Below, piece after piece: positions 1,183-46,709 of a DNA stretch of 64,000 bases (positions are counted from its first letter, which is position 1; each line of letters begins with the position of its first letter). Under the pieces are notes generated by a model, which worked only from the letters and a program-made list of their open reading frames with translations, did not search any database and was not told the origin of the DNA. A program made the translations under genes and the position numbers. This stretch comes from Escherichia phage vB-Eco-KMB26: sequence record OR539218.1, one strand, 5' to 3'.

Positions 1183-1652
1183 TCAGTGATAAAGTTATTT
1201 AAATTTTGAGTATATTTCTTTTCATCAAAAATCTTTTGTTGTCTGCGTAAACGCCATGGCATTTCAATGAACATACGCCATATTCCTGATAATACTGCTG
1301 CTGTAAAAATATTAACAAGTATAGTTAAAAGAACCCAATCTCCTATTCTGTCCATTGGATTTTTTATAAAAAAGTAAAATACGAACGATGATATAGGAAG
1401 ACTAATGATATACCACAGAAGAACCTTCTTATCTGTGAACCAATCAGCATTCGTTAACTTAGCGCGACCGTTTTGAATACATACGAACTTATCATCTGTT
1501 ACAGTAAATGGCTTAGCTGCTTGATATCCCATTCTAAACTCCCTAATCAACAAATTTTTCATATCTTCGGAACAACCATTCCAGTCAACTCTATCAACTG
1601 AAATGCCATCGTCCCCATCATCTAAATCATACCAGCGAGTTTTTAAAATCAT
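1164..1652 (-). CDS. Small membrane protein: N-terminal soluble domain, two predicted TM helices, basic tail ending FITECRKLK
   Basis: 162-aa ORF, ATG start overlapping the upstream stop (ATGA), hydrophobic stretches LLWYIISLPISSFVFYFFI and WVLLTILVNIFTAAVLSGIW. Confidence 0.7.
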   Translation of the reverse strand: MILKTRWYDLDDGDDGISVDRVDWNGCSEDMKNLLIREFRMGYQAAKPFTVTDDKFVCIQNGRAKLTNADWFTDKKVLLWYIISLPISSFVFYFFIKNPMDRIGDWVLLTILVNIFTAAVLSGIWRMFIEMPWRLRRQQKIFDEKKYTQNLNNFITECRKLK

Positions 1653-2011
1653 TTAATTTTCCTACAATCACTCACAAACTCTTCCATTGATTCTTTTTCA
1701 ATATAAGACATATAGCTATTATATTCCTTTAATTGTATTTTGTAATCCTTTTTTCTTTGCCAATTTATTTTAAAATTATCATAATGAAAATATAACATGG
1801 TACCAAAGAATGAAAATAATGAAATCGCTATAGTAAAACGAAGTTCACTCCAAACCTCTGTTATAATTACTGTGCCGTCGATATTTAAAATAAAACAGTC
1901 AATTAACAATCCAATAAGACTACCCGCAAGAGCTGTAAATACTGATACAGCAAGAATTAATAGTGCCTCAGGAAACGAATATTTGACTTTATTTAGTTTT
2001 GGCTTTTGCAT
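1649..2011 (-). CDS. Small two-TM membrane protein, tail ending EEFVSDCRKIK
   Basis: 120-aa ORF with ATG start; hydrophobic segments ALLILAVSVFTALAGSLIGLLI and FTIAISLFSFFGTMLYF; coupled start/stop with neighbours. Confidence 0.7.
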   Translation of the reverse strand: MQKPKLNKVKYSFPEALLILAVSVFTALAGSLIGLLIDCFILNIDGTVIITEVWSELRFTIAISLFSFFGTMLYFHYDNFKINWQRKKDYKIQLKEYNSYMSYIEKESMEEFVSDCRKIK

Positions 2012-2385
2012 CGTGATTCCTTAACAAATTTCATAATTTCATCAAATTCATACATATCTAGCTTAAGCTGGTGTTCCTTTTTAATCTTTTTACACTGAGC
2101 TTTCCAATCACGTACACGTTTACGATAATGTCTTCCTTGATACCAGTATCCTACCCAATTTACGGGTACTAATAAAAGTGGAACTATTAATGGAAGAATT
2201 AGCATTAACACAAGTATTTCGCCAGAATCAATATCAGTCATAACATCTAAAACACCTCCAATAATCAATAGAATTACAAATGATATGAGTATAACAGGAC
2301 CTATTAACACATCAGTAGAAATTATCTGACGCTTTGGTTCATACTTCACAGGTTTACTTGGAAGGTATAGTGATGGTTTTGACAT
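1993..2385 (-). CDS. Small two-TM membrane protein, tail ending MKFVKESRCKSQN
   Basis: ORF track starts at a TTG (2406); first ATG is at 2383-2385 (MSKPSLY...) with AAGGAA SD upstream; two hydrophobic helices. Confidence 0.65.
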   Translation of the reverse strand: MSKPSLYLPSKPVKYEPKRQIISTDVLIGPVILISFVILLIIGGVLDVMTDIDSGEILVLMLILPLIVPLLLVPVNWVGYWYQGRHYRKRVRDWKAQCKKIKKEHQLKLDMYEFDEIMKFVKESRCKSQN

Positions 2386-2968
2386 ATTCTCTACATTCCT
2401 TAACAAATTTTTCTAGTAATAAATCACTTTCAAAATTGGGATTTTCTACAAATTTATCAAAAAGATCATCAACAATAGTTAAGATATTCTTTTTACTAAG
2501 AATACGTTTATTTTCATGCTTCGTTTCAGAATCAACTATAAGAGTAAAGAAATATTTCTTGCCCTGAAATTTTACAGTAGTATCAATATAAAATAAATTT
2601 GACTTTTGTAAATTACGTTTAAACCATGCGTCACTTAAACTATAAACACCGAGATAATCAAAATCGTCGTTTAAATAACAAACCGTCCATTCAGGAGAAA
2701 TGAAATCAGTAAATTCAACATCAAAATCACACGTCAATGAATGAATTGATTCAATACTGTTAATGAGTATTCCAGGACGTATTAAAGACTTTTTACCTCT
2801 AGAAAATCTTCCGGAAAGGCTTTCATCAGTTTCATATGAAGACCCCCAATAGTAATTACGTCCTTCTGCCATGCGTTTAAGAGCATTTAGTAATTGGTCT
2901 GGAACATCAACCTGTCTTTGGAACTCTTCAAACATTGAATTGAAATCACTTTGCATTTTCATTTTCAT
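2354..2968 (-). CDS. Hypothetical protein (204 aa), soluble; C-terminus EKFVKECREYVKTITIPSK
   Basis: ORF with three in-frame ATGs at the N-terminus (MKMKM...); GGAG upstream; no recognisable catalytic motif. Confidence 0.65.
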   Translation of the reverse strand: MKMKMQSDFNSMFEEFQRQVDVPDQLLNALKRMAEGRNYYWGSSYETDESLSGRFSRGKKSLIRPGILINSIESIHSLTCDFDVEFTDFISPEWTVCYLNDDFDYLGVYSLSDAWFKRNLQKSNLFYIDTTVKFQGKKYFFTLIVDSETKHENKRILSKKNILTIVDDLFDKFVENPNFESDLLLEKFVKECREYVKTITIPSK

Positions 2969-2985
2969 TCCTATTTACTCCAAGT

Positions 2986-3007
2986 ATAAGGGGCCGAAGC
3001 CCCTTAT
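2986..3007 (-). terminator. GC-rich hairpin between the 197-aa and 204-aa ORFs (weak terminator or RNA-stability element)
   Basis: ataaggggc-cgaa-gcccctt at palindrome; the same hairpin sequence recurs at 42718-42735; no clear U-run on the transcribed strand. Confidence 0.3.
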
Positions 3008-3009
3008 CA

Positions 3010-3603
3010 TTATTTCAGAGAATTAATGTATTCCTGAACATCGGCAGAGGTAGTTTCAACCCCAGAAATATTACCGTTAAAGGTTTCAACTCGAGCAAGG
3101 GTATCTTCAATATCAACCTTAGTCAGTGCTGCAATTTCAACTACATCATCGGCAGTACTAATTCCAAGGGCATTTGCTGCACGAGTTTCACGGATATATT
3201 CCAATTTAACCGCAAGTTCTTGACGAGCATCATCTAACTCAACTACTTTCTTGGCGATTTCAATTCGCATTTCAGCATAACCGTCAGCCTTAGTAGTCAA
3301 CTGCTCAGCTGTTCGACGATATAGTAAACCGAGTTTAGCATGCATTGTTACATCTTGGCCTTCGGAAAGAAGTTTACGAATTTCACGCTCTTTTGATTCG
3401 GCCTGTCGATTCTTTTCGATAACAAGTTCACGAATACGTTTTTCTTCGTTAATAGATTTAACAGAAGCAGTTTTTAGATCTTTAATTTTATCAAGTAGTT
3501 TTGCTGCTGCAGCAGTATACTGTTCTTCGACAGATAGATTTTTAGCCATAGCAGAACCAAGTTTAGTGCGAATAAACTCAACAATTTTCTTCAGTGTGTT
3601 CAT
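3010..3603 (-). CDS. Coiled-coil protein with PspA/IM30 (phage-shock protein A)-like C-terminal signature
   Basis: 197-aa ORF, ATG with AAGGA SD; helical, charge-rich; C-terminal [24 protein letters not shown] resembles the PspA QAANSS..LDSGKLDEAMARFESF region as I recall it. Confidence 0.55.
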
Positions 3604-3646
3604 AGTATTTCCTTAGGTTAATTGAGATTTAAAATCCATGAGAGTA

Positions 3647-3892: not shown

Positions 3893-4156
3893 TTATTTCA
3901 TATTATTGAAATATTCTTCTGCGATTTCATCGTTATCATGGTAAACTTTAGAAGACAGTTTAACATAACCTTCAGCAGTGAACATGTTAATCACAACCTT
4001 TACAGTATACCACTGACCATCTTCATTACCCATTACTGCATAGGTTTCAAACATCGGATGGTCAGGACCGATAACTTTAATATCATTCACTGTACGACCG
4101 AAATCTTCTGAAACACATTTCATAAAGAAGTTGAACAGTTCGCCGTAATTATCCAT
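3893..4156 (-). CDS. Hypothetical protein (~87 aa)
   Basis: ORF track start is a TTG; first ATG at 4154-4156 (MDNYGELF...) with GGAGAATGAA SD; sits directly downstream of the tandem early promoters. Confidence 0.6.
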   Translation of the reverse strand: MDNYGELFNFFMKCVSEDFGRTVNDIKVIGPDHPMFETYAVMGNEDGQWYTVKVVINMFTAEGYVKLSSKVYHDNDEIAEEYFNNMK

Positions 4157-4186
4157 TTCATTCTCCAAGTTGTTTTTGTATCAGTA

Positions 4187-4278
4187 GTTGATAGTTGTAT
4201 AGTACCATGGAAGAACAGGGATGTAAACAGTTGTTGATAGTTGTATAGTACCATGGAAGAACAGGGATGTAAACAGTT
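4187..4278 (-). promoter_or_regulatory. Tandem duplicated sigma70-type T4 early promoter (2 x ~46 bp)
   Basis: Direct repeat gttgatagttgtatagtaccatggaagaacagggatgtaaacag at 4187-4230 and 4233-4276; each copy reads on the reverse strand TTTACA-N17-TACTAT. Confidence 0.6.
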
Positions 4279-4405
4279 TTGTGAAAAAATTTTTTAAAAA
4301 GTTTTAGGGAATTCTAGGGCAGGGAGGGGCAATTAAAAGATAGGATAATATATTATAAAGGGTAGAAACTAAATGATGTCTAGAGAGGCCCGGAAAGGCC
4401 TAGAT

Positions 4406-4436
4406 ACCAAAAAGCCCCAACCTTTTGGTCGGGGCT
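4406..4436 (-). terminator. Rho-independent terminator after the IP-like gene
   Basis: Hairpin agccccaacc-tttt-ggtcggggct at 4413-4436, followed on the reverse strand by a U-run (plus-strand aaaaa at 4408-4412). Confidence 0.6.
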
Positions 4437-4443
4437 AAGAATG

Positions 4444-4917
4444 TTATTTGATTTGTTTAGCAGACCAAATGCGGTCTTTAATAATTTTTTGGATGTCTTC
4501 AACATACTCAAGAGAGTGAACATGTGGGTTATCTTTGAAACTATAAGCACGAGCTAGCTTTTGGCCTTCAGTTTTGATTACTAAAAGCTCTTTAAGGATA
4601 GCTTCATATTTGGAGATAATTCCTTTAACAATATTTTTCTCTTGTGTGACTTTAGGATCTGCTTTAGGAGCAGGTTTACCTGAAGCCTTTGCAAAAGCAG
4701 CTCCAGTAGCAACTAAACTTTTCCAAGCCATACTAACTGCATTCCCTGTAAATCCTTCGGCTTTCATATCACGAGCAAATTGGAATCGTGATTCATCGGA
4801 AGCATCTTTATAGGAATATTTACCCGCGGCAATGGCAGCTTTTGCAACAGCTTGAATTTCAGTGCTAGATGCTTCATTTAACACCGCTTCATTTAAAAAT
4901 TGAGTATATGATTTCAT
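4444..4917 (-). CDS. Internal-protein-like head protein with N-terminal capsid-targeting-like leader (MKSYTQFLNE/AVLNE)
   Basis: 157-aa ORF, ATG with AGGAAATAAG SD; N-terminus resembles the T4 IP capsid-targeting sequence MKTYQEFIAE with L-x-E motifs; TATAAATA late promoter upstream. Confidence 0.6.
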   Translation of the reverse strand: MKSYTQFLNEAVLNEASSTEIQAVAKAAIAAGKYSYKDASDESRFQFARDMKAEGFTGNAVSMAWKSLVATGAAFAKASGKPAPKADPKVTQEKNIVKGIISKYEAILKELLVIKTEGQKLARAYSFKDNPHVHSLEYVEDIQKIIKDRIWSAKQIK

Positions 4918-4953
4918 CTTATTTCCTGTTTTAATTCGGGGTTTTAATATACT

Positions 4954-4961
4954 TATTTATA
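4954..4961 (-). promoter_or_regulatory. T4 late promoter box (TATAAATA, reverse strand) upstream of the IP-like gene
   Basis: Plus-strand tatttata 37 bp upstream of the ATG at 4917. Confidence 0.5.
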
Positions 4962-4991
4962 CTAAAAAGCCCCAACCTTTCGGTCGGGGCT
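4962..4991 (-). terminator. Rho-independent terminator at the distal end of the tRNA cluster
   Basis: Hairpin agccccaacc-tttc-ggtcggggct at 4968-4991 with reverse-strand U-run (plus aaaaa 4963-4967); near-copy of the 4413-4436 hairpin. Confidence 0.6.
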
Positions 4992-5042
4992 AAGCCTTGC
5001 GGCAACCTTGTCGGGGTTCCACCTGCTAAGGCAAGTGTTTGT

Positions 5043-5134
5043 ACGAAACGCCGGGATTCGAACCCGGTTATTAAGCAGTTGACGCTACTCAATATTTTTA
5101 AAAGGCCATATCTCGACCATATCCGAACGTTCCG
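5043..5134 (-). ncRNA. tRNA-like element: canonical T-arm and 7-bp acceptor stem, but no canonical D or anticodon arm (92 nt)
   Basis: Reverse strand reads ...CCGGG-TTCGAAT-CCCGG-CGTTTCG-T at its 3' end, pairing with CGGAACG at the 5' end; AT-rich interior does not fold as a cloverleaf by eye. Confidence 0.3.
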
Positions 5135-5307
5135 TCAAAAACGCTACTCGGCTTACGGCAAAGATATTTCCTCGAATCGATAATTCGGTGCGCCGTTTCT
5201 GCTGTGATATAAGGGGACATTAACAAAACATAAAGATTTATTAATACCAGTCCTTAAACAGGGAACATCAGTCCGACGACTTGCCGGTAGCGACCCGGCT
5301 TCTTGTC

Positions 5308-5383
5308 TGGTCGAGGCAGTAGGGATCGAACCTACGACCCAGGACTTAGAAGGTCCTTGCTCTTCCTTCTGAGCTATGCCTCG
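5308..5383 (-). tRNA. tRNA-Arg (anticodon UCU)
   Basis: 76-nt cloverleaf CGAGGCA..AGGAC-CTTCTAA-GTCCT..GTAGG-TTCGATC-CCTAC-TGCCTCG-A-CCA; encoded CCA. Confidence 0.85.
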
Positions 5384-5387
5384 TATT

Positions 5388-5462
5388 TGGCGGACGTGAT
5401 AGGATTCGAACCTATAACCAATCGCTTAACAGGCGATCGCTCTGCCATTGAGCTACACATCC
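5388..5462 (-). tRNA. tRNA-Asn (anticodon GUU)
   Basis: 75-nt cloverleaf GGATGTG..GCTC/GAGC D-stem, ATCGC-CTGTTAA-GCGAT anticodon arm, ATAGG-TTCGAAT-CCTAT T-arm, CCA encoded. Confidence 0.85.
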
Positions 5463-5466
5463 AAAT

Positions 5467-5553
5467 TGGTGGGGAGTGGTGGAGTCGAACCACCCGAGTC
5501 GCAATGACAATGAATTTACAGTCCACACCGCTACCTCTACGGGATAACTCCCC
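5467..5553 (-). tRNA. Type II tRNA with long variable arm, probably tRNA-Tyr (anticodon GUA)
   Basis: 87 nt: acceptor GGGGAGT/ACTCCCC, T-arm GGTGG-TTCGACT-CCACC, CCA encoded; best anticodon arm GTGGA-CTGTAAA-TTCAT (loop as in bacterial tRNA-Tyr) but D-arm is non-canonical. Confidence 0.55.
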
Positions 5554-5562
5554 AAATTAATT

Positions 5563-5637
5563 TGGTGGCCCTGGGTGGAATTGAACCACCATCTGGCGAT
5601 TATGAGTCGCTTGCTTGAACCTTCCAGCTACAGGGCC
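5563..5637 (-). tRNA. tRNA with CAU anticodon (Ile2 by T4 synteny, Met not excluded)
   Basis: 75 nt: GGCCCTG acceptor, anticodon loop CTCATAA, T-arm GGTGG-TTCAATT-CCACC, CCA encoded. Confidence 0.75.
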
Positions 5638-5638
5638 T

Positions 5639-5714
5639 TGGTGCTGATTGACGGAATCGAACCGCCGACCTTCTCATTACAAGTGAGTTGCTCTACCTAC
5701 TGAGCTAAATCAGC
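5639..5714 (-). tRNA. tRNA-Thr (anticodon UGU)
   Basis: 76 nt: GCTGATT-TA-GCTC..GAGC, ACTCA-CTTGTAA-TGAGA, GGCGG-TTCGATT-CCGTC, AATCAGC-A-CCA. Confidence 0.88.
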
Positions 5715-5719
5715 AAAAC

Positions 5720-5809
5720 TGGCGGAGGCGATAGGATTTGAACCTATGAGTCGCCGGAGCGACTGCCGGTTTTCAAGACCGGTGCATTAAACCACTCTGC
5801 CACGCCTCC
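5720..5809 (-). tRNA. tRNA-Ser (anticodon UGA), type II
   Basis: 90 nt: GGAGGCG acceptor, CCGGT-CTTGAAA-ACCGG anticodon arm, long variable arm, ATAGG-TTCAAAT-CCTAT, CCA encoded; 2-nt spacer to tRNA-Pro. Confidence 0.88.
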
Positions 5810-5811
5810 AG

Positions 5812-5885
5812 TCTCCGTGGCAGGATTTGAACCTACGACATTCTGCTCCCAAAGCAGACGCTCTACCAAACTGAGCTACACGGAG
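5812..5885 (-). tRNA. tRNA-Pro (anticodon UGG)
   Basis: 74 nt: CTCCGTG-TA-GCTC..GAGC, TCTGC-TTTGGGA-GCAGA, GTAGG-TTCAAAT-CCTGC, CACGGAG-A; CCA not encoded. Confidence 0.88.
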
Positions 5886-5895
5886 TAAATTAAAT

Positions 5896-5969
<74 letters not shown>

Positions 5970-5974
5970 AAATT

Positions 5975-6061
5975 TGGTGCGAGAAGTGGGACTCGAACCC
6001 ACAAGGAAATCATTCCGCAGCATTTTAAGTGCTGTGCCTTTACCAATTTGGCCATTCTCGC
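5975..6061 (-). tRNA. tRNA-Leu (anticodon UAA), type II
   Basis: 87 nt: GCGAGAA acceptor, CAGCA-CTTAAAA-TGCTG, long variable arm, GTGGG-TTCGAGT-CCCAC, CCA encoded. Confidence 0.88.
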
Positions 6062-6062
6062 G

Positions 6063-6135
6063 CTGGGAATAAAGGACTCGAACCTTTGCATCCTGGAATC
6101 AAAATCCAGTGCCTTACCAACTTGGCTAATTCCCA
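6063..6135 (-). tRNA. tRNA-Gln (anticodon UUG)
   Basis: 73 nt: TGGGAAT acceptor, CTGGA-TTTTGAT-TCCAG, T-loop GGTTCGAGTCC; 1-nt spacer to tRNA-Leu. Confidence 0.88.
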
Positions 6136-11228: not shown

Positions 11229-11819
11229 ATGCTCTTTACATTTTTTGATCCGATTGAATATGCGGCCAAAACGGTGAATAAAAACGCGCCGACTATTCCT
11301 ATGACAGATATTTTTAGAAACTATAAAGACTATTTTAAACGCGCTCTTGCGGGATACCGCTTACGTACTTATTATATCAAAGGTTCACCACGCCCGGAAG
11401 AATTAGCAAATACTATATATGGAAATCCACAGTTGTATTGGGTTTTATTGATGTGTAATGATAATTATGACCCGTATTATGGATGGATTACTTCACAAGA
11501 AGCAGCTTATCAAGCATCTATACAAAAATACAAAAATGTAGGTGGAGACCAAATAGTATATCATGTGAATGAGAACGGTGAAAAATTTTATAATTTAATA
11601 TCATACGATGATAATCCATATGTTTGGTATGATAAAGGTGATAAAGCTAGAAAATATCCTCAATATGAAGGAGCACTTGCTGCTGTTAATACGTATGAAG
11701 ATGCTGTTCTTGAAAATGAAAAACTTCGTCAAATAAAAATAATAGCAAAATCAGACATTAATTCATTTATGAACGACCTTATACGTATAATGGAGAAATC
11801 TTATGGAAATGATAAGTAA
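11229..11819 (+). CDS. 53: gp53, baseplate wedge protein
   Basis: 196-aa ORF, GGAGGG SD; T4 synteny 4-53-5. Confidence 0.9.
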   Translation: MLFTFFDPIEYAAKTVNKNAPTIPMTDIFRNYKDYFKRALAGYRLRTYYIKGSPRPEELANTIYGNPQLYWVLLMCNDNYDPYYGWITSQEAAYQASIQKYKNVGGDQIVYHVNENGEKFYNLISYDDNPYVWYDKGDKARKYPQYEGALAAVNTYEDAVLENEKLRQIKIIAKSDINSFMNDLIRIMEKSYGNDK

Positions 11820-13530
11820 TAACCTTAATTGGTTTGTTGGTGTTGTTGAAGATAGAATGGACCCATTAAAATTAGGTCGTGTTCGTGTTCGTGTGGTTGG
11901 TCTGCATCCACCTCAAAGAGCACAAGGCGATGTAATGGGTATTCCAACTGAAAAATTACCATGGATGTCAGTTATTCAACCTATAACTTCTGCAGCAATG
12001 TCTGGAATTGGAGGTTCTGTTACTGGACCGGTAGAAGGAACTAGAGTTTATGGTCATTTTTTAGACAAATGGAAAACTAACGGAATTGTCCTTGGCACGT
12101 ATGGTGGAATAGTTCGCGAAAAACCGAATAGACTTGAAGGATTTTCTGACCCAACTGGGCAATATCCTAGACGTTTAGGAAATGATACTAATGTATTAAA
12201 CCAAGGCGGAGAAGTAGGATATGATTCGTCTTCTAACATTATCCAAGATAGTAACTTAGACACTGCAATAAATCCCGATGATAGACCACTATCAGAGATT
12301 CCAACCGATGATAATCCAAATATGTCAATGGCTGACATGCTTCGCCGTGATGAAGGATTAAGACTAAAAGTTTATTGGGATACTGAAGGATATCCGACAA
12401 TTGGTATTGGTCATCTTATCATGAAGCAGCCAGTTCGTGATATGGCTCAAATTAATAAAGTTTTATCAAAACAAGTTGGTCGTGAAATTACTGGAAACCC
12501 AGGTTCTATTACGATGGAAGAGGCGACGACTTTATTTGAACGTGATTTGGCTGATATGCAACGGGACATTAAATCACATTCTAAAGTAGGACCAGTCTGG
12601 CAAGCTGTCAACCGTTCTCGTCAAATGGCGTTAGAAAATATGGCATTTCAAATGGGTGTTGGCGGTGTAGCTAAATTTAACACAATGTTAACTGCTATGT
12701 TAGCCGGAGATTGGGAAAAAGCATATAAAGCCGGTCGTGATTCATTGTGGTATCAACAAACAAAAGGCCGTGCATCCCGTGTTACCATGATTATTCTTAC
12801 GGGGAATTTGGAATCATATGGTGTTGAAGTGAAAACCCCAGCTAGGTCTCTATCAGCAATGGCTGCTACTGTAGCTAAATCTTCTGACCCGGCTGACCCT
12901 CCTATTCCAAATGACTCGAGAATTTTATTCAAAGAACCAGTTTCTTCATATAAAGGTGAATATCCTTATGTGCATACAATGGAAACTGAAAGCGGACATA
13001 TTCAGGAATTTGATGATACTCCTGGGCAAGAACGATACAGATTAGTTCATCCGACTGGAACTTATGAAGAAGTATCACCGTCAGGAAGAAGAACAAGAAA
13101 AACTGTCGATAATTTGTATGATATAACCAACGCTGATGGTAATTTTTTGGTAGCCGGTGATAAAAAGACTAACGTCGGTGGATCAGAAATTTATTACAAC
13201 ATGGATAATCGTCTTCACCAAATAGATGGAAGCAATACAATATTTGTACGTGGCGATGAAACTAAGACAGTTGAAGGCAATGGAACTATCCTAGTTAAAG
13301 GTAATGTTACTATTGTAGTTGAAGGTAATGCTGACATTACAGTTAAAGGAGATGCTACCACTTTAGTTGAAGGAAATCAAACTAACACAGTAAATGGAAA
13401 TCTTTCTTGGAAAGTTGCTGGGACAGTTGATTGGGACGTTGGTGGTGATTGGACAGAAAAAATGGCATCTATGAGTTCTATTTCATCTGGTCAATACACA
13501 ATTGATGGATCGAGGATTGACATTGGCTAA
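11803..13530 (+). CDS. 5: gp5, baseplate central spike with tail lysozyme domain
   Basis: 575-aa ORF; internal lysozyme domain MADMLRRDEGLRLKVYWDTEGYPTIGIGH paralogous to gene e in this window; C-terminal VEGN/VKG beta-helix repeats. Confidence 0.95.
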   Translation: MEMISNNLNWFVGVVEDRMDPLKLGRVRVRVVGLHPPQRAQGDVMGIPTEKLPWMSVIQPITSAAMSGIGGSVTGPVEGTRVYGHFLDKWKTNGIVLGTYGGIVREKPNRLEGFSDPTGQYPRRLGNDTNVLNQGGEVGYDSSSNIIQDSNLDTAINPDDRPLSEIPTDDNPNMSMADMLRRDEGLRLKVYWDTEGYPTIGIGHLIMKQPVRDMAQINKVLSKQVGREITGNPGSITMEEATTLFERDLADMQRDIKSHSKVGPVWQAVNRSRQMALENMAFQMGVGGVAKFNTMLTAMLAGDWEKAYKAGRDSLWYQQTKGRASRVTMIILTGNLESYGVEVKTPARSLSAMAATVAKSSDPADPPIPNDSRILFKEPVSSYKGEYPYVHTMETESGHIQEFDDTPGQERYRLVHPTGTYEEVSPSGRRTRKTVDNLYDITNADGNFLVAGDKKTNVGGSEIYYNMDNRLHQIDGSNTIFVRGDETKTVEGNGTILVKGNVTIVVEGNADITVKGDATTLVEGNQTNTVNGNLSWKVAGTVDWDVGGDWTEKMASMSSISSGQYTIDGSRIDIG

Positions 13531-41126: not shown

Positions 41127-41156
41127 AACAAAGGGACCGAAAGGTCCCTTTTTATT
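41125..41156. terminator. Bidirectional terminator between convergent genes 24 and rnlB
   Basis: Hairpin agggacc-gaaa-ggtccct flanked by A-run upstream and T-run downstream. Confidence 0.65.
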
Positions 41157-42160
41157 TAACTTACCAATTCAATCCAAGCCGGACGAAGTACATCTTGTAC
41201 CATTTTAACTAATTCCTTCTTAATCAAAGAAGGATTATCCGCTTGAGTTAGAGTAATACCTTCACGAGAAGTTTCTTCCAAAATATCTTGAACAGTTAGT
41301 CCCATCACCTTTCCAAAATCCTTCGGACCAATTTCACCAATTTTAGAAATAACGTTATTTACTCGGTTCAGTGTAACGTAGCAAGCTAAAATTCCCACCA
41401 ATTTGTTATCAGCTTCTGATAGTTCAACTTTAGCTTTAATAGGCTTATCAGACTTTTTCTTTTCACTAAATTTGGAATTCTTGCATTTGATGGCTACACG
41501 ATTTCCATTATGAAGCCAAGAAGGATAACAAGGTTTCAATACATATCCTTCAGCGGTAAATACTTCGCCTTTGGCTTCAGCTTTCCAAACACATTTGTTA
41601 GCGTCAACTAATCCAGCATGGTCTACTGTAAAATTATAATCTTGGACGACAGAATCTAAATCATTTGGCAATTTAATAAGCTCTTCAAATTTACCGCGAC
41701 CTAAAAGTGGAGCCATTTTAAATTTAAATGTATTGCAGAATGATTCCATCATATAATCATCGACATAAGTCACATCACCACTTTCTGTAGTAACAATAAT
41801 GTCAAATACATAAAAATCTTTATCGCCATAATCGACATTCTTCTGAATGCCAGGTCCAGCGAATTCGCCAAAAACTTGATAAGATACAACCGCTGAAGTT
41901 TCCATAATATCTTGTACTGCTTTAATGGAATCAGAGTAATTCTTCAAAATAATTTCATACCCAAAGAAATCTTCAGCAGGAAGAATAGGACCAGTGCGTT
42001 TAGCGCAAGTTACTTTATCACGCTCAATAATCAATGAGAAATTTGTGCCGTGAATCTTTTCACGAGCTACCCACTCCCCACCAGTCAATCCCAAGCTATA
42101 AAGTTTTTCAATAAATTTAGAGTTGTAATGATTTTCAAGACTGCTATACTTTTTAAACAT
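41156..42160 (-). CDS. rnlB: RNA ligase 2
   Basis: 334-aa ORF, nucleotidyltransferase lysine motif EKIHGTNF (KxxG); T4 position after gene 24. Confidence 0.9.
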
Positions 42161-42704: not shown

Positions 42705-42738
42705 TCAAAATGAAGAAAGGGGCCGAAGCCCCTTATGA
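42705..42738 (-). terminator. Rho-independent terminator after hoc
   Basis: Hairpin aaggggc-cgaa-gcccctt at 42718-42735 followed on the reverse strand by a U-rich run; preceded by (ATAATC)x3 after the hoc stop. Confidence 0.6.
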
Positions 42739-42750
42739 TTATGATTATGA

Positions 42751-44457
42751 TTATGGATAGGTATAGATGATACCAGTTTCTAAAGCAGTTTTATGAATGA
42801 TGTATCCATTGCGTGATTCTTGAACATCAACTTCTGGATAGTCTTTCATCATCTTCTGAAGAGTGTAACGATGCAGGTAGTATTTACTGTCTGGATCTTC
42901 AGTTTTCCAATCTTTACCTTCTTCGGTCATTTTTTGGATTTCATCCATAACCCACCAACCGCACCAGATATAAGCTGAAGTACGATGTGGAAGAGGATGA
43001 ACATAAGGCAATTCACCTTCTGGTTCTGGAGCAACTTTATCAGTTACCTGAACTTGACCTTCTGCTGTAATAGTTTTGCTATCGTAATCAGTTGCAGTAA
43101 CGACAGCAGTAACTTCAATAGTTTGACTTCCAACAGATGAGGTATCGACAGTATATACGTTAGTTGACCCTTCTACAGGAGAAGAATCTTTCTTCCATGA
43201 GTAAGTAATTTGTGCTTCTTCTGGAGCACCCGTAACATTAGCCGTAAATGTAGCCGAAGCATCTTGCTGAACGTTAATAGAAGGAGGAGTCAATGTAACC
43301 TGTGGATTCATTGTTTTCTTATTAACAGTCAATGATACTTCATTAGAAGTAACTTCCTTTTCATTGTAATTTTCTGCAGTTACTTGCGCTACACACTTAA
43401 CTGTTTTAGCTCCAACTGTGGTAGGAGTATAGTTAAATGTAGTAGTAGTTTCTCCATCGACCAGAGAACCGTCAACATACCACTGATACGTAGCAGACGC
43501 TCCTGGTGGCTGTGAATCCAAGGCAGCAGTAAATTGAACTGGGGTTCCAATTACTCCGGCAGCAGGATTAGCAGGAGTTACGGCTAACGTAGTTGTCTGT
43601 GTCTTCTTATTAACTGTTAATGATACTTCATTAGAAGTAACTGTTTTTGCGTCATAATCTGTTGCTGTTACTTGCGCTACGCATTTAATTCTTTTTACTC
43701 CACTTGTAGTTGGAGTATAGCTAAATGTAGCAGAAGTCGCTTCACCAATTTGAGAATCATCTACATACCACTGATACGTAGCAGATGCCCCATCAGGTTG
43801 AGAAGCTAAGGCAGCAGTAAATTCAACGGCTGTTCCAATCACTCCAGCTGGAGGACTATCAGGAGTTACTGCCAAGGTAGTCGTCTGCGTCTTTTTATTA
43901 ACAGTCAATGATACTTCATTAGAAGTAACGCTTAGTGCATCATAATCTGCCGCAGTTACTTGAGCTACACACTTGATTTTTTTAACTCCGCTTGTGTCAG
44001 GAGTGTAATTGAATGTAGCGTCAGTTGCTTCGTCTACAGGAGAACCGTCAACGTGCCATTGATACGTAGCGTTTGCACCTGATGGCTGTGAAGCTAAGGC
44101 AGCGGTAAATTCAATTGGAGTTCCAATCACTCCAGCATCAGGGCTACCAGGAGTTACAGCTAAAGTAGTTGTTTGTGTCTTATTTTGAACTGTGATAGTT
44201 GTAGTAGCTTCTGCTGTTTCAGCATCAGTATCTGGAACTGTATTTGTTGCAACTACTTTAATAGTCTTTTGTCCAGCAGGTCCTTTTAATACATAATCAA
44301 AAGTTGCTTCAGCTCCATCTTGTGGAGCATCATCTACAGTCCAAGCATATGTAATAGTTCCGCCTCCAGTTTCACCACTGGGTGTAGCAGTAAACTGCTT
44401 AGTTTCATCAATAACCCCTGTCGGTGTTTTAGGAGTTATATCAACTGTAAAAGTCAT
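42751..44457 (-). CDS. hoc: Highly immunogenic outer capsid protein, expanded to five Ig-like domains plus capsid-binding domain
   Basis: 568-aa ORF; N-terminus MTFTVDITPKTPTGVIDETKQF and C-terminal capsid-binding domain ..WCGWWVMDEIQKMTEEGKDW.. as in T4 Hoc; three tandem ~96-aa units each starting KTQTTTLAVTP. Confidence 0.93.
   Translation of the reverse strand: MTFTVDITPKTPTGVIDETKQFTATPSGETGGGTITYAWTVDDAPQDGAEATFDYVLKGPAGQKTIKVVATNTVPDTDAETAEATTTITVQNKTQTTTLAVTPGSPDAGVIGTPIEFTAALASQPSGANATYQWHVDGSPVDEATDATFNYTPDTSGVKKIKCVAQVTAADYDALSVTSNEVSLTVNKKTQTTTLAVTPDSPPAGVIGTAVEFTAALASQPDGASATYQWYVDDSQIGEATSATFSYTPTTSGVKRIKCVAQVTATDYDAKTVTSNEVSLTVNKKTQTTTLAVTPANPAAGVIGTPVQFTAALDSQPPGASATYQWYVDGSLVDGETTTTFNYTPTTVGAKTVKCVAQVTAENYNEKEVTSNEVSLTVNKKTMNPQVTLTPPSINVQQDASATFTANVTGAPEEAQITYSWKKDSSPVEGSTNVYTVDTSSVGSQTIEVTAVVTATDYDSKTITAEGQVQVTDKVAPEPEGELPYVHPLPHRTSAYIWCGWWVMDEIQKMTEEGKDWKTEDPDSKYYLHRYTLQKMMKDYPEVDVQESRNGYIIHKTALETGIIYTYP
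43318..44184. repeat. Three tandem ~288-bp coding repeats inside hoc
   Basis: Plus-strand ttattaacagtcaatgatacttcattagaagtaac recurs at ~43319, ~43607 and ~43896 (period 288-289 bp); coordinates approximate. Confidence 0.85.
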
Positions 44458-44466
44458 AAGTTATCC

Positions 44467-45147
44467 TTATTTTAATGTTACGAAAGAAGAGTTGCGTGTT
44501 TCACGAATTAAAACTGATCCGTCACGGTTAATGTAATAAATTAAGCTAAATAAAGTTTGGTGTGCTGACGCATGTTCAAAACTAGTTGGGTGAGATTTCC
44601 AATCAGGAGTTTCAGCAATCCATTGATAAATCCACCAAGGAACAGTACAGAATCCTGGATTTTTTCCAATCAACTGAAGATTCGGGCTAAAGTTTTCCGG
44701 AAGAGTAAATACAGACGGCTTTTCAGATTCAATAATCTCAGCTACAGCCTGTTCAAATTTTTCTTCAACAAATGGAGTATCTTCAATCAAAACATCGGTA
44801 TTTTCAGGAATTTTATCTGTTTCTACTACTTCAATTTTAATGTCAGATTTAACCGGAGAATCAATCAAAAGTGCTGCTTCTGGATTGACTTCTTCATCGT
44901 CATATTTTAACCCCTCTGCAGCATCAGCAGCATCAATTAAGTCTTTAATAGATAACCCATCAGTCTCTGGCATAGGTTCACTAGCGAGCTTCTGGAGAGA
45001 TTCTTCAATATCATTAACGATATTATCAAAAGATTTATTCTTTTTGACCTTTATACCAAACTGTTCAGCATATTCAGCTAATTTAGCTTTAGCTTCTTTA
45101 TTATCATCAAGAGCCTTCAGCTCTGCAATATAATCTTTATCTATCAT
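44467..45147 (-). CDS. inh: Inhibitor of prohead protease gp21
   Basis: 226-aa ORF downstream of hoc; T4 synteny hoc-inh. Confidence 0.85.
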   Translation of the reverse strand: MIDKDYIAELKALDDNKEAKAKLAEYAEQFGIKVKKNKSFDNIVNDIEESLQKLASEPMPETDGLSIKDLIDAADAAEGLKYDDEEVNPEAALLIDSPVKSDIKIEVVETDKIPENTDVLIEDTPFVEEKFEQAVAEIIESEKPSVFTLPENFSPNLQLIGKNPGFCTVPWWIYQWIAETPDWKSHPTSFEHASAHQTLFSLIYYINRDGSVLIRETRNSSFVTLK

Positions 45148-45160
45148 AATATTTCCTCAG

Positions 45161-45168
45161 TATAAATA
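45161..45168 (+). promoter_or_regulatory. T4 late promoter box upstream of uvsW
   Basis: tataaata 30 bp upstream of the uvsW ATG. Confidence 0.5.
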
Positions 45169-45197
45169 TAGATATATTTATTACATGGTATTTAGAC

Positions 45198-46709
45198 ATG
45201 ACTGACATTAAAGTACATTTTTATGATTTTAGTCACGTGAGAATTGATTGCGAAGAAAGTACATTTCATGAACTCCGTGATTTCTTTAGCTTTGAAGCTG
45301 ATGGGTATCGTTTTAATCCGAAGTACAAATATGGCCACTGGGATGGACGAATTCGTCTTTTAGATTATAATCGTCTTCTTCCATTCGGCTTAGTCGGGCA
45401 AATTAAAAAGTTCTGTGATAACTTTGGCTATAAAGCCTGGATTGACCCACAAATTAACGAAAAAGAAGAATTATCAAGAAAAGATTTTGATGAATGGCTT
45501 TCTAAATTAGAAATCTATTCAGGAAATAAAAGAATTGAACCACACTGGTATCAAAAAGATGCAGTGTTCGAAGGATTAGTTAATCGTCGTAGAATTCTTA
45601 ATCTTCCAACATCCGCTGGTAAATCGTTAATTCAAGCTTTGCTTGCGCGATATTATTTGGAAAATTATGAAGGTAAAATTCTTATCATTGTTCCAACAAC
45701 TGCTCTAACAACTCAGATGGCTGATGACTTCGTTGACTATCGTTTATTCAGTCATGCAATGATAAAGAAAATTGGTGGCGGAGCATCAAAAGATGATAAA
45801 TATAAAAATGATGCACCAGTCGTTGTTGGTACATGGCAAACTGTAGTAAAACAACCGAAAGAATGGTTCTCACAGTTTGGAATGATGATGAATGATGAAT
45901 GCCATCTTGCTACAGGAAAAAGTATTTCATCTATCATATCAGGTTTAAATAACTGCATGTTCAAATTTGGTCTATCTGGTTCATTACGTGATGGCAAAGC
46001 CAATATCATGCAGTATGTTGGAATGTTTGGTGAAATATTTAAGCCAGTAACGACTTCTAAGTTAATGGAAGATGGACAAGTAACTGAGCTAAAAATTAAT
46101 AGTATTTTTCTTCGCTATCCCGATGAGTTCACTACTAAATTAAAGGGAAAAACTTATCAAGAAGAAATAAAAATTATTACGGGGCTTAGTAAAAGAAATA
46201 AATGGATCGCTAAATTGGCTATTAAGCTTGCACAAAAAGATGAAAACGCTTTTGTCATGTTTAAACACGTATCGCACGGTAAAGCTATTTTCGATTTAAT
46301 TAAAAATGAATACGATAAAGTTTATTACGTATCAGGGGAAGTTGATACCGAAACCCGCAATATAATGAAAACCTTAGCTGAAAACGGTAAAGGAATAATT
46401 ATAGTAGCTAGTTATGGTGTATTTTCTACTGGTATTTCAGTTAAAAATCTGCATCACGTTGTTTTAGCGCACGGTGTTAAATCAAAAATCATTGTATTAC
46501 AAACAATCGGTCGTGTATTACGTAAGCATGGTTCTAAGACAATAGCAACCGTCTGGGACCTCATAGATGATTGTGGCGTTAAGCCAAAATCTGCTAATAC
46601 GAAAAAGAAATACGTTCATTTGAACTATCTTTTAAAACACGGCATTGATCGTATTCAGCGCTACGCAGATGAAAAATTTAATTACGTAATGAAAACAGTT
46701 AATTTATAA
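45198..46709 (+). CDS. uvsW: UvsW, SF2 DNA/RNA helicase
   Basis: 503-aa ORF; Walker A PTSAGKS, DEAH-type box MMNDECH, helicase C-terminal motifs. Confidence 0.93.
   Translation: MTDIKVHFYDFSHVRIDCEESTFHELRDFFSFEADGYRFNPKYKYGHWDGRIRLLDYNRLLPFGLVGQIKKFCDNFGYKAWIDPQINEKEELSRKDFDEWLSKLEIYSGNKRIEPHWYQKDAVFEGLVNRRRILNLPTSAGKSLIQALLARYYLENYEGKILIIVPTTALTTQMADDFVDYRLFSHAMIKKIGGGASKDDKYKNDAPVVVGTWQTVVKQPKEWFSQFGMMMNDECHLATGKSISSIISGLNNCMFKFGLSGSLRDGKANIMQYVGMFGEIFKPVTTSKLMEDGQVTELKINSIFLRYPDEFTTKLKGKTYQEEIKIITGLSKRNKWIAKLAIKLAQKDENAFVMFKHVSHGKAIFDLIKNEYDKVYYVSGEVDTETRNIMKTLAENGKGIIIVASYGVFSTGISVKNLHHVVLAHGVKSKIIVLQTIGRVLRKHGSKTIATVWDLIDDCGVKPKSANTKKKYVHLNYLLKHGIDRIQRYADEKFNYVMKTVNL

Follow-up and report, generated by a model that had tools for sequence, protein, structure and literature searches.

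[quoted passage not shown] It is very probable that these units are old paralogous domain-2 cassettes, whose number has risen and fallen through in-register recombination at boundaries that hardly vary, and which would make the fibre longer. The evidence comes from the divergence between the units, from their counterparts in other phages, and from the patchwork composition of the shorter hoc alleles.

The hoc locus and the domains of the Hoc protein

The gene at 42751-44457 is hoc, as shown by PHROG matches, by the match to T4 Hoc in the PDB and by synteny. The 568-aa protein is matched by PHROG 1149 (“Hoc-like head decoration”) with an E-value of 4.7e-175 and also by PHROG 21694, and T4 Hoc (5vf3_Z) gave an E-value of 2e-213, with the best stretch covering query residues 369-568. 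The Pfam families PKD, Ig_2, Ig_3, PKD_3 and PKD_4 scored above their cut-offs, and I-set slightly below. Based on ORFs and PHROG matches the locus has the T4-type order rnlB-24.2-24.3-hoc-inh-(segD)-uvsW, with hoc placed between inh and 24.3, and the identical order is annotated in EC101, ime09, T4 and YUEEL01. The features of the region are as follows.

41156-42160: RNA ligase, 334 aa, on the opposite side of hoc from inh (ORF and PHROG match)
Between hoc and the RNA ligase ORF: small 24.3- and 24.2-like ORFs
42717..42734, minus strand: terminator-like GC-rich hairpin followed by a T-run (consensus scan, pattern match only)
42751..44457, minus strand: hoc coding sequence, 568 aa plus stop (ATG-started ORF, PHROG 1149, Pfam and PDB match)
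42754..43035, minus strand: linker and C-terminal capsid-binding domain, aa 475-568 (98% aa identity to T4 Hoc)
43036..43317, minus strand: Ig-like domain 3 (D3), aa 381-474 (Pfam Ig_3 and I-set at aa 385-469)
43318..43605, minus strand: unit 3 (“g”), aa 285-380 (unit HMM 182 bits)
43606..43893, minus strand: unit 2 (“b”), aa 189-284 (unit HMM 186 bits)
43894..44181, minus strand: unit 1 (“a”), aa 93-188 (unit HMM 187 bits)
44182..44457, minus strand: Ig-like domain 1 (D1), aa 1-92 (AlphaFold2 beta-sandwich, pLDDT 82-93)
44467-45147: Inh-like protein (prohead-protease inhibitor), 226 aa (ORF and PHROG match)
45198-46709: UvsW-type helicase, divergent, beyond inh (ORF and PHROG match)

The putative terminator is located 17 nt 3' of the hoc stop codon and contains 7 base pairs, 5 of which are G-C (AAGGGGCTTCGGCCCCTT and then TCTTCATTTT), and a “terminator” is annotated beneath the hoc match in several relatives. 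On the minus strand the exact late-promoter motif TATAAATA was absent immediately 5' of hoc or inh. The sole nearby copy of TATAAATA lies at 45161-45168 on the plus strand, pointing to uvsW.

From the N- to the C-terminus the Hoc protein consists of D1, unit a, unit b, unit g, D3, a linker and the capsid-binding domain. Compared with the Hoc protein of T4 (376 aa; PDB 5VF3, 8T1X), which is encoded at the same locus, D1 is 87% and D3 89% identical at the amino acid level, and the capsid-binding domain, homologous to T4 Hoc residues 281-376, is the best conserved part of the alignment. D1 is furthermore 100% identical to D1 of HY03. The AlphaFold2 model, calculated from a 51-sequence alignment, has a mean pLDDT of 84.6 and contains five separate beta-sandwich domains with pLDDT about 90 (about 86-93 for D3), followed by the linker (aa 476-499) and a helix-containing C-terminal domain, both predicted with low confidence (pLDDT 39-65 for the linker and the C-terminal domain). 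A search of the PDB with the whole model in Foldseek yielded multi-Ig proteins of a generic kind (complement C3, cadherins, ICAM) at TM-scores of 0.15-0.3; the scores are low because of inter-domain flexibility, and the result tells no more than “Ig-like domain string”. The presence of such an N-terminal string of Ig-like domains of the PKD/I-set type is agreed upon by Pfam, AlphaFold2 and the multi-Ig ectodomains found by Foldseek.

Tandem Repeats Finder reported the interval 43312-44181 with a period of 288, 3.0 copies, 77% matches, 1% indels and a score of 1019, and a second repeat search returned three copies at 288-nt spacing with 79% identity to the reference copy. The three in-frame units of 288 nt (96 aa) span 43318-44181, with KTQTTTLAVTP beginning at residues 93, 189 and 285 and SNEVSLTVNKK ending at residues 189, 285 and 381. 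All three are homologous to domain 2 of T4 Hoc, to which they are 80-89% identical, unit 2 being the nearest (90% identity in nucleotides and 89% in amino acids). When an HMM built from the three window units was applied with strong matches defined as over 60 bits, homologues of 376, 472 and 568 aa contained exactly 1, 2 or 3 strong matches, respectively, and D1 and D3 reached merely 19-36 bits (33 bits for D1 of the window). The extra 192 aa compared with T4 Hoc are exactly two added Ig units of the domain-2 type. An earlier note on this DNA had described three tandem domain-2 copies of about 96 aa in hoc and a shorter T4 protein with one such unit; the former is borne out by the ORF, the repeat searches and the motif positions, and the latter is confirmed by the lengths of 376 aa in T4 and 568 aa in the window.

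Divergence of the units and their counterparts in other phages

The same note had regarded the nucleotide repeats as still highly similar and taken them as a sign of recent duplication. The similarity was overstated, since pairwise identity among the window units amounts to 76-79% at the DNA level and 74-81% at the protein level, and a recent duplication is contradicted by the synonymous divergence. The Nei-Gojobori dS values between units are 1.16 (units 1-2), 0.54 (units 1-3) and 0.68 (units 2-3), compared with window-versus-T4 orthologous values of 0.11 for inh and 0.22-0.25 for D1, D3 and the C-terminal domain. Because the unit-unit dS exceeds the dS between the window and T4, the units diverged well before the sampled Tequatrovirus genomes, or were imported from further away. 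Near-identical DNA combined with a dS below that of close relatives, which we took as the mark of a recent tandem duplication, was not found for any pair; in the adjacent pair a-b, which has the highest dS, the protein identity (81%) is even higher than the DNA identity (76%). With dN/dS values of 0.11-0.30 between units, each of them is under purifying selection.

Each window unit has a counterpart with 93-100% identity, at the matching position, in phages carrying 2 or 4 units. Unit 1 is 99% identical in nucleotides to unit 1 of ime09 and 93% identical to unit 1 of slur14, unit 2 recurs with 100% identity in the hoc gene of Yersinia phage phiD1, which has two units, and is 95% identical to unit 3 of slur14, and unit 3 is 97% identical in nucleotides to unit 2 of ime09 and 99% identical to both unit 4 of slur14 and unit 3 of T4_ev151. 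The 2-unit hoc of ime09 (1419 nt) corresponds to window units 1 and 3, and aligns with a single 288-nt gap at the unit boundary. A recent in situ tandem triplication of domain 2 in the lineage of the window's phage would account for the exact 288-nt period, the preserved reading frame and the identical unit ends, but we find it very improbable in view of these counterparts, of the DNA identity of merely 76-79%, and of a unit dS exceeding the window-versus-T4 orthologous dS by a factor of 2-10. Moreover, 0 of 58 within-protein unit pairs are above 85% aa identity, and therefore no fresh duplication was sampled anywhere.

The Hoc protein of the window is identical to that of Escherichia phage EC101 (UIS74392.1), from which the gene differs by 2 synonymous nucleotides. 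Over the flanking region the identity to EC101 is 98.5%, and the window therefore comes from a different isolate. A 3-unit hoc of 1707-1713 nt was found at 93-99.9% identity in 12 distinct GenBank genomes (EC101, YUEEL01, TOPO13, ECML-123-2, OMNI12, UGKSEcP1, UGKSEcP2, ESh16, ESh26, ESh34, ESh36 and T4_ev151), and separate assemblies from ENA and Logan contain the gene at 88-92% identity as well. Apart from EC101 the 3-unit genes are 93-98% identical in nucleotides to the window gene, with nothing of substance being different. Of the four among the 12 records whose origin was looked at, one names Denmark, one names South Korea and two state no country. Although mis-assembly is a general hazard of tandem repeats, it is very unlikely that the assembler expanded the repeat in the window, since the longest in-register identical run between two window units is 23-35 nt, so that ordinary reads and k-mers separate the units, since the reading frame is intact, and since a gene of the same length range recurs in these 12 independently sequenced genomes besides the ENA and Logan assemblies.

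Hoc genes with four units (1995 nt, 664 aa) are annotated in slur03, slur08, slur14, vB_EcoM_FJ1 and Sfk20. They have the same architecture and unit order as the window gene with one more unit, “d”, placed between a and b, making a-d-b-g, as in slur14, the fullest known array, compared with a-b-g in the window. The nine 3-unit arrays among the best 120 protein clusters comprise three a-b-g, three a-d-b and three a-d-g arrays, with T4_ev151 being a-d-g. The order a-d-b-g is kept in all nine of these and in most 2-unit arrays of the same protein set; it is broken in eight 2-unit proteins that classify, mostly ambiguously, as b-d. The units are orthologous by type and conserved in order in the window, ime09, phiD1, slur14, Sfk20, T4_ev151 and the nine 3-unit arrays, and since many units are mosaic we claim conservation of order for these named examples and the nine arrays only. 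The four types were also tried as clean clades and rejected as such: when 169 units were sorted into three groups by average-linkage clustering, a and b fell together.

For an impression of how common each form is, the 288-nt unit was used as query in sensitive mode, which gave matches at 889 places in 616 phage records. Of 60 records drawn from these at even spacing, 34 had one place, 23 had two (one of them a match split at the record end), one had three and two had four. As a rough estimate, slightly over half of the records have 1 unit, about a third have 2, about 2% have 3 and about 1% have 4. The best 120 protein clusters, which were ranked against the 3-unit query and do not constitute a frequency estimate, comprise 80 proteins with one unit, 31 with two and 9 with three. 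The 2-unit Hoc (472 aa; ime09, phiD1, HP3, PST and many others) is built from the same cassettes with one fewer than in the window and is the common multi-unit form. The capsid-binding domain alone retrieved 137 family representatives of 70-1473 aa, almost always with the match at the C-terminus, and 31 of the 137 are at least 568 aa long, so that the length of the window's Hoc is within the family's usual span. These long representatives agree with the published Hoc-like protein of Serratia phage Muldoon, which has 1174 aa and 10 Ig domains (PMC10385173).

The domain count of the window, presented in the earlier note as unusual, is so only in part: three units are uncommon, but two are common and four occur in five genomes. 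When Hoc lengths were compared across relatives, as the note had proposed, the count turned out to be largely shared, with 12 genomes having three units. Judged from these comparisons, the 568-aa Hoc with five Ig-like domains is an ordinary, already deposited variant of a well-known protein. A variable number of Hoc Ig domains has also been reported in general terms (PMC10385173; PMC11150434), and a literature search on the 1-4 unit polymorphism returned general statements only, with no description of this cassette series found. As a discovery the window gene adds little, the exact protein having been deposited and the variable domain number being in the literature.

Recombination between hoc alleles

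Phages that are 95-96% identical to the window over a 5.5-kb region have 1, 2 or 3 units. The clearest case is HY03, in which 0 of 276 nt in D1 and 3 of 288 nt in D3 differ from the window, and which carries one mosaic unit, the clustered mismatches to the window all falling within nt 288-507 of the HY03 gene. The 1- and 3-unit alleles are therefore found on the same recent haplotype. In YUEEL01 the three units, D3 and the C-terminal domain are identical to those of the window, whereas D1 differs by 14% in DNA.

The single units of T4 and HY03 are both patchworks, with a b-like middle followed by an a-like 3' end in T4 and by a g-like 3' end in HY03 (36 of 36 nt). We considered them as simple collapse products of an a-b-g array; the g-like 3' end of HY03 fits this explanation, but the a-like 3' end of T4 does not, and the explanation was rejected. 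When 169 units were divided into thirds, the class of one third was independent of that of the others, and the segment classes are shuffled. The mean entropy is 0.13 at the unit boundaries compared with 0.49 in the rest of the unit, and when sorted by predicted structure the variation is 0.60 outside strands and 0.24 in strands.

Collectively, the HY03 and YUEEL01 comparisons, the mosaic units and the invariant boundaries argue for in-register homologous recombination at conserved boundaries. Arrays of 1, 2, 3 or 4 units represent a cassette polymorphism throughout Tequatrovirus, in which units are very probably gained, lost and exchanged patch by patch when phages co-infect a cell, by means of unequal crossing-over and patch conversion, the presumed recombination sites being the almost invariant boundaries ...TSNEVSLTVNK|KTQTTTLAVTP.... 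The a-b-g array of the window could have been formed by unequal crossing-over between an ime09-like a-g allele and a phiD1-like allele, the b unit of phiD1 being identical to that of the window, but it would be equally well explained by loss of d from an a-d-b-g array. The change may have started from a 4-unit ancestor that lost units, or from shorter arrays that were extended. In phage T4, recombination is very frequent and tandem duplications are unstable, both of which fit the lack of unit pairs above 85% aa identity.

Fibre length and mucin binding

The Hoc protein of T4 is described as a four-domain fibre with a length of 180 Å, in which a capsid-binding domain carries three Ig-like domains, and is located at the centre of the gp23* hexamers (PMC10385173). 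It is present as one copy per gp23* hexamer, or 155 per capsid, and is dispensable for growth (PMC10385173; PMC9958956). Extrapolating with about 45 Å per domain, the Hoc fibre of the window may measure roughly 270 Å, which would be about half longer than that of T4.

The units may also matter for binding. In domain 2 of PNJ-9 Hoc, mutation of S183, L184 or T185 abolished binding to MUC2 (PMC11853027), and the corresponding S-L-T is found in the EVSLTVNK strand of all three window units, at S183-T185, S279-T281 and S375-T377. Because each extra Ig domain would lengthen the fibre and each unit repeats the S-L-T, the extra units may change the reach of Hoc and its avidity for mucin glycans or cell surfaces, and the earlier note's suggestion that a longer fibre could alter adherence is a reasonable one. 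PNJ-6 Hoc speaks against a simple avidity story, since its domain 1 bound MUC2 whereas its domain 2, taken in isolation, did not (PMC11150434).

The PNJ-6 result would also be expected if the number of units were effectively neutral, the units being tolerated spacers that drift by T4 recombination with no effect on adherence. Neutrality would likewise agree with Hoc being dispensable in the laboratory (PMC9958956) and with the variation in unit number, in no obvious pattern, among the relatives that are 95-96% identical over 5.5 kb. On the other hand, all units are under purifying selection according to the dN/dS values and are predicted to fold well, their variation gathers in predicted loops, a large share of genomes keep multi-unit alleles, and the S-L-T needed for MUC2 binding in PNJ-9 domain 2 is conserved in all three units. 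We consider neutrality a possible but rather unlikely explanation.

A further reading goes beyond the gain and loss of old cassettes and is put forward as speculation that we ourselves think will probably turn out wrong: the domain-2 units of Tequatrovirus could act as a recombination-driven “length and avidity dial”, where 1-4 cassettes and swapped loop variants would tune fibre reach and mucin-glycan binding to each host, and where arrays would persist only since the synonymous divergence of neighbouring units shields them from homologous recombination. Such a reading is consistent with the 0 of 58 unit pairs above 85% aa identity and with the excess of protein over DNA identity in the pair a-b.

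Natural alleles with 1, 2, 3 and 4 cassettes in otherwise near-identical phages amount to a ready-made experiment. Such an allele series could show if mucus adherence and persistence in the gut are tuned by the length and valency of the fibre, and an effect of unit number there bears on the choice of therapeutic T4-like phages.

In crAss-like phages, variable tandem repeats of BACON domains are mentioned (de Jonge et al. 2019, as cited in PMC9271167). According to that mention they too are putatively glycan-binding beta-sandwich domains in tandem on a structural protein, and as they belong to an unrelated family the likeness is an analogy only. The Hoc proteins of Muldoon, PG7 and PNJ-9, the last of which lacks domain 3 (PMC11853027), share with the window an Ig-like string of variable number on a conserved capsid-binding domain. 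Their differences lie between distant phages, whereas the differences involving the window are found among near-identical Tequatrovirus phages and arise through one repeated domain type.

Hoc variants in related phages

Longer, chimeric and irregular versions of Hoc were found in relatives, and those with locations in the comparison sequences are as follows:
slur14 (comparison sequence L007), 1649-3643: four-unit hoc, 664 aa
Sfk20 (comparison sequence L008), 1649-3643: four-unit hoc, 664 aa
Logan SRR17833564 contig (comparison sequence L009), 4001-5704: 567-aa Hoc (protein P0086), same locus as the hoc gene of the window

Tequatrovirus includes a 664-aa Hoc in which four units give six Ig-like domains, as seen in slur14 and Sfk20, where the fourth unit, type d, begins KEQTTT and is placed between a and b. 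No five-unit hoc was present among the top matches.

The 567-aa Hoc of the Logan contig recurs in phage CCU7 (PV806175.1), again at the locus of the window hoc. Its Tequatrovirus-like part consists of D1 and the first unit, while the second unit is only 52% identical to the window units and the third about 40%. RB69 hoc matches nucleotides 553-1704 of this gene at 97% identity; judged by these alignments, the protein looks like an intergeneric chimera.

Certain two-unit hoc genes of GenBank relatives have lengths of 1418, 1420 or 1430 nt, and for certain ones the annotation breaks the gene into two or three pieces ("Hoc part 1 / part 2"); relatives with such odd-length or split genes include PM105, PM107, UPWr_E2, SfPhi01, Ec_YwIITB1, FriedrichMiescher and PST. 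The odd lengths and the split annotation suggest that these alleles contain frameshifts or sequencing errors.

Neighbouring units and the inh-uvsW gap

For the neighbouring units 1 and 2 of the window (43606-44181) the protein identity of 81% exceeds the DNA identity of 76%, and their dS of 1.16 is the highest of the three window unit pairs. This contrast and the high dS would fit either age alone or selection that disfavours recombination between adjacent units.

In the window only 50 nt (45148-45197) separate inh from the divergent uvsW, whereas T4, HY03 and T4_ev151 carry a 618-nt ORF, segD, in this position; the T4 and HY03 records label it a homing endonuclease. ESh16 and ESh34 have approximately 600 nt more than the window in the 5.5-kb region around hoc, and in ESh16 the annotation beneath the match to this region includes a homing endonuclease. 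A homing endonuclease adjoining hoc could promote the local recombination observed in that gene.

tRNA genes and other repeats

Further features of the window include:
5308-6135 (-): cluster of 10 tRNA genes (Gln, Leu, Gly, Pro, Ser, Thr, Met, Tyr, Asn, Arg)
13269-13401: 24/48-nt periodic repeat within a 575-aa ORF, 11803-13530 (+)

Since T4 has eight tRNA genes, the ten found here may include extras beyond the T4 set in vB-Eco-KMB26.

The 575-aa ORF encodes a gp5-like baseplate hub/lysozyme protein, and the periodic repeat codes for VxGxxxxx-type octapeptides close to its C-terminus, which are the ordinary, already known beta-helix needle repeat. A 46-nt repeat (4182-4278; 2.1 copies, 98% identity) overlaps only a 44-aa ORF (4120-4254) and otherwise lies outside ORFs of at least 40 aa.
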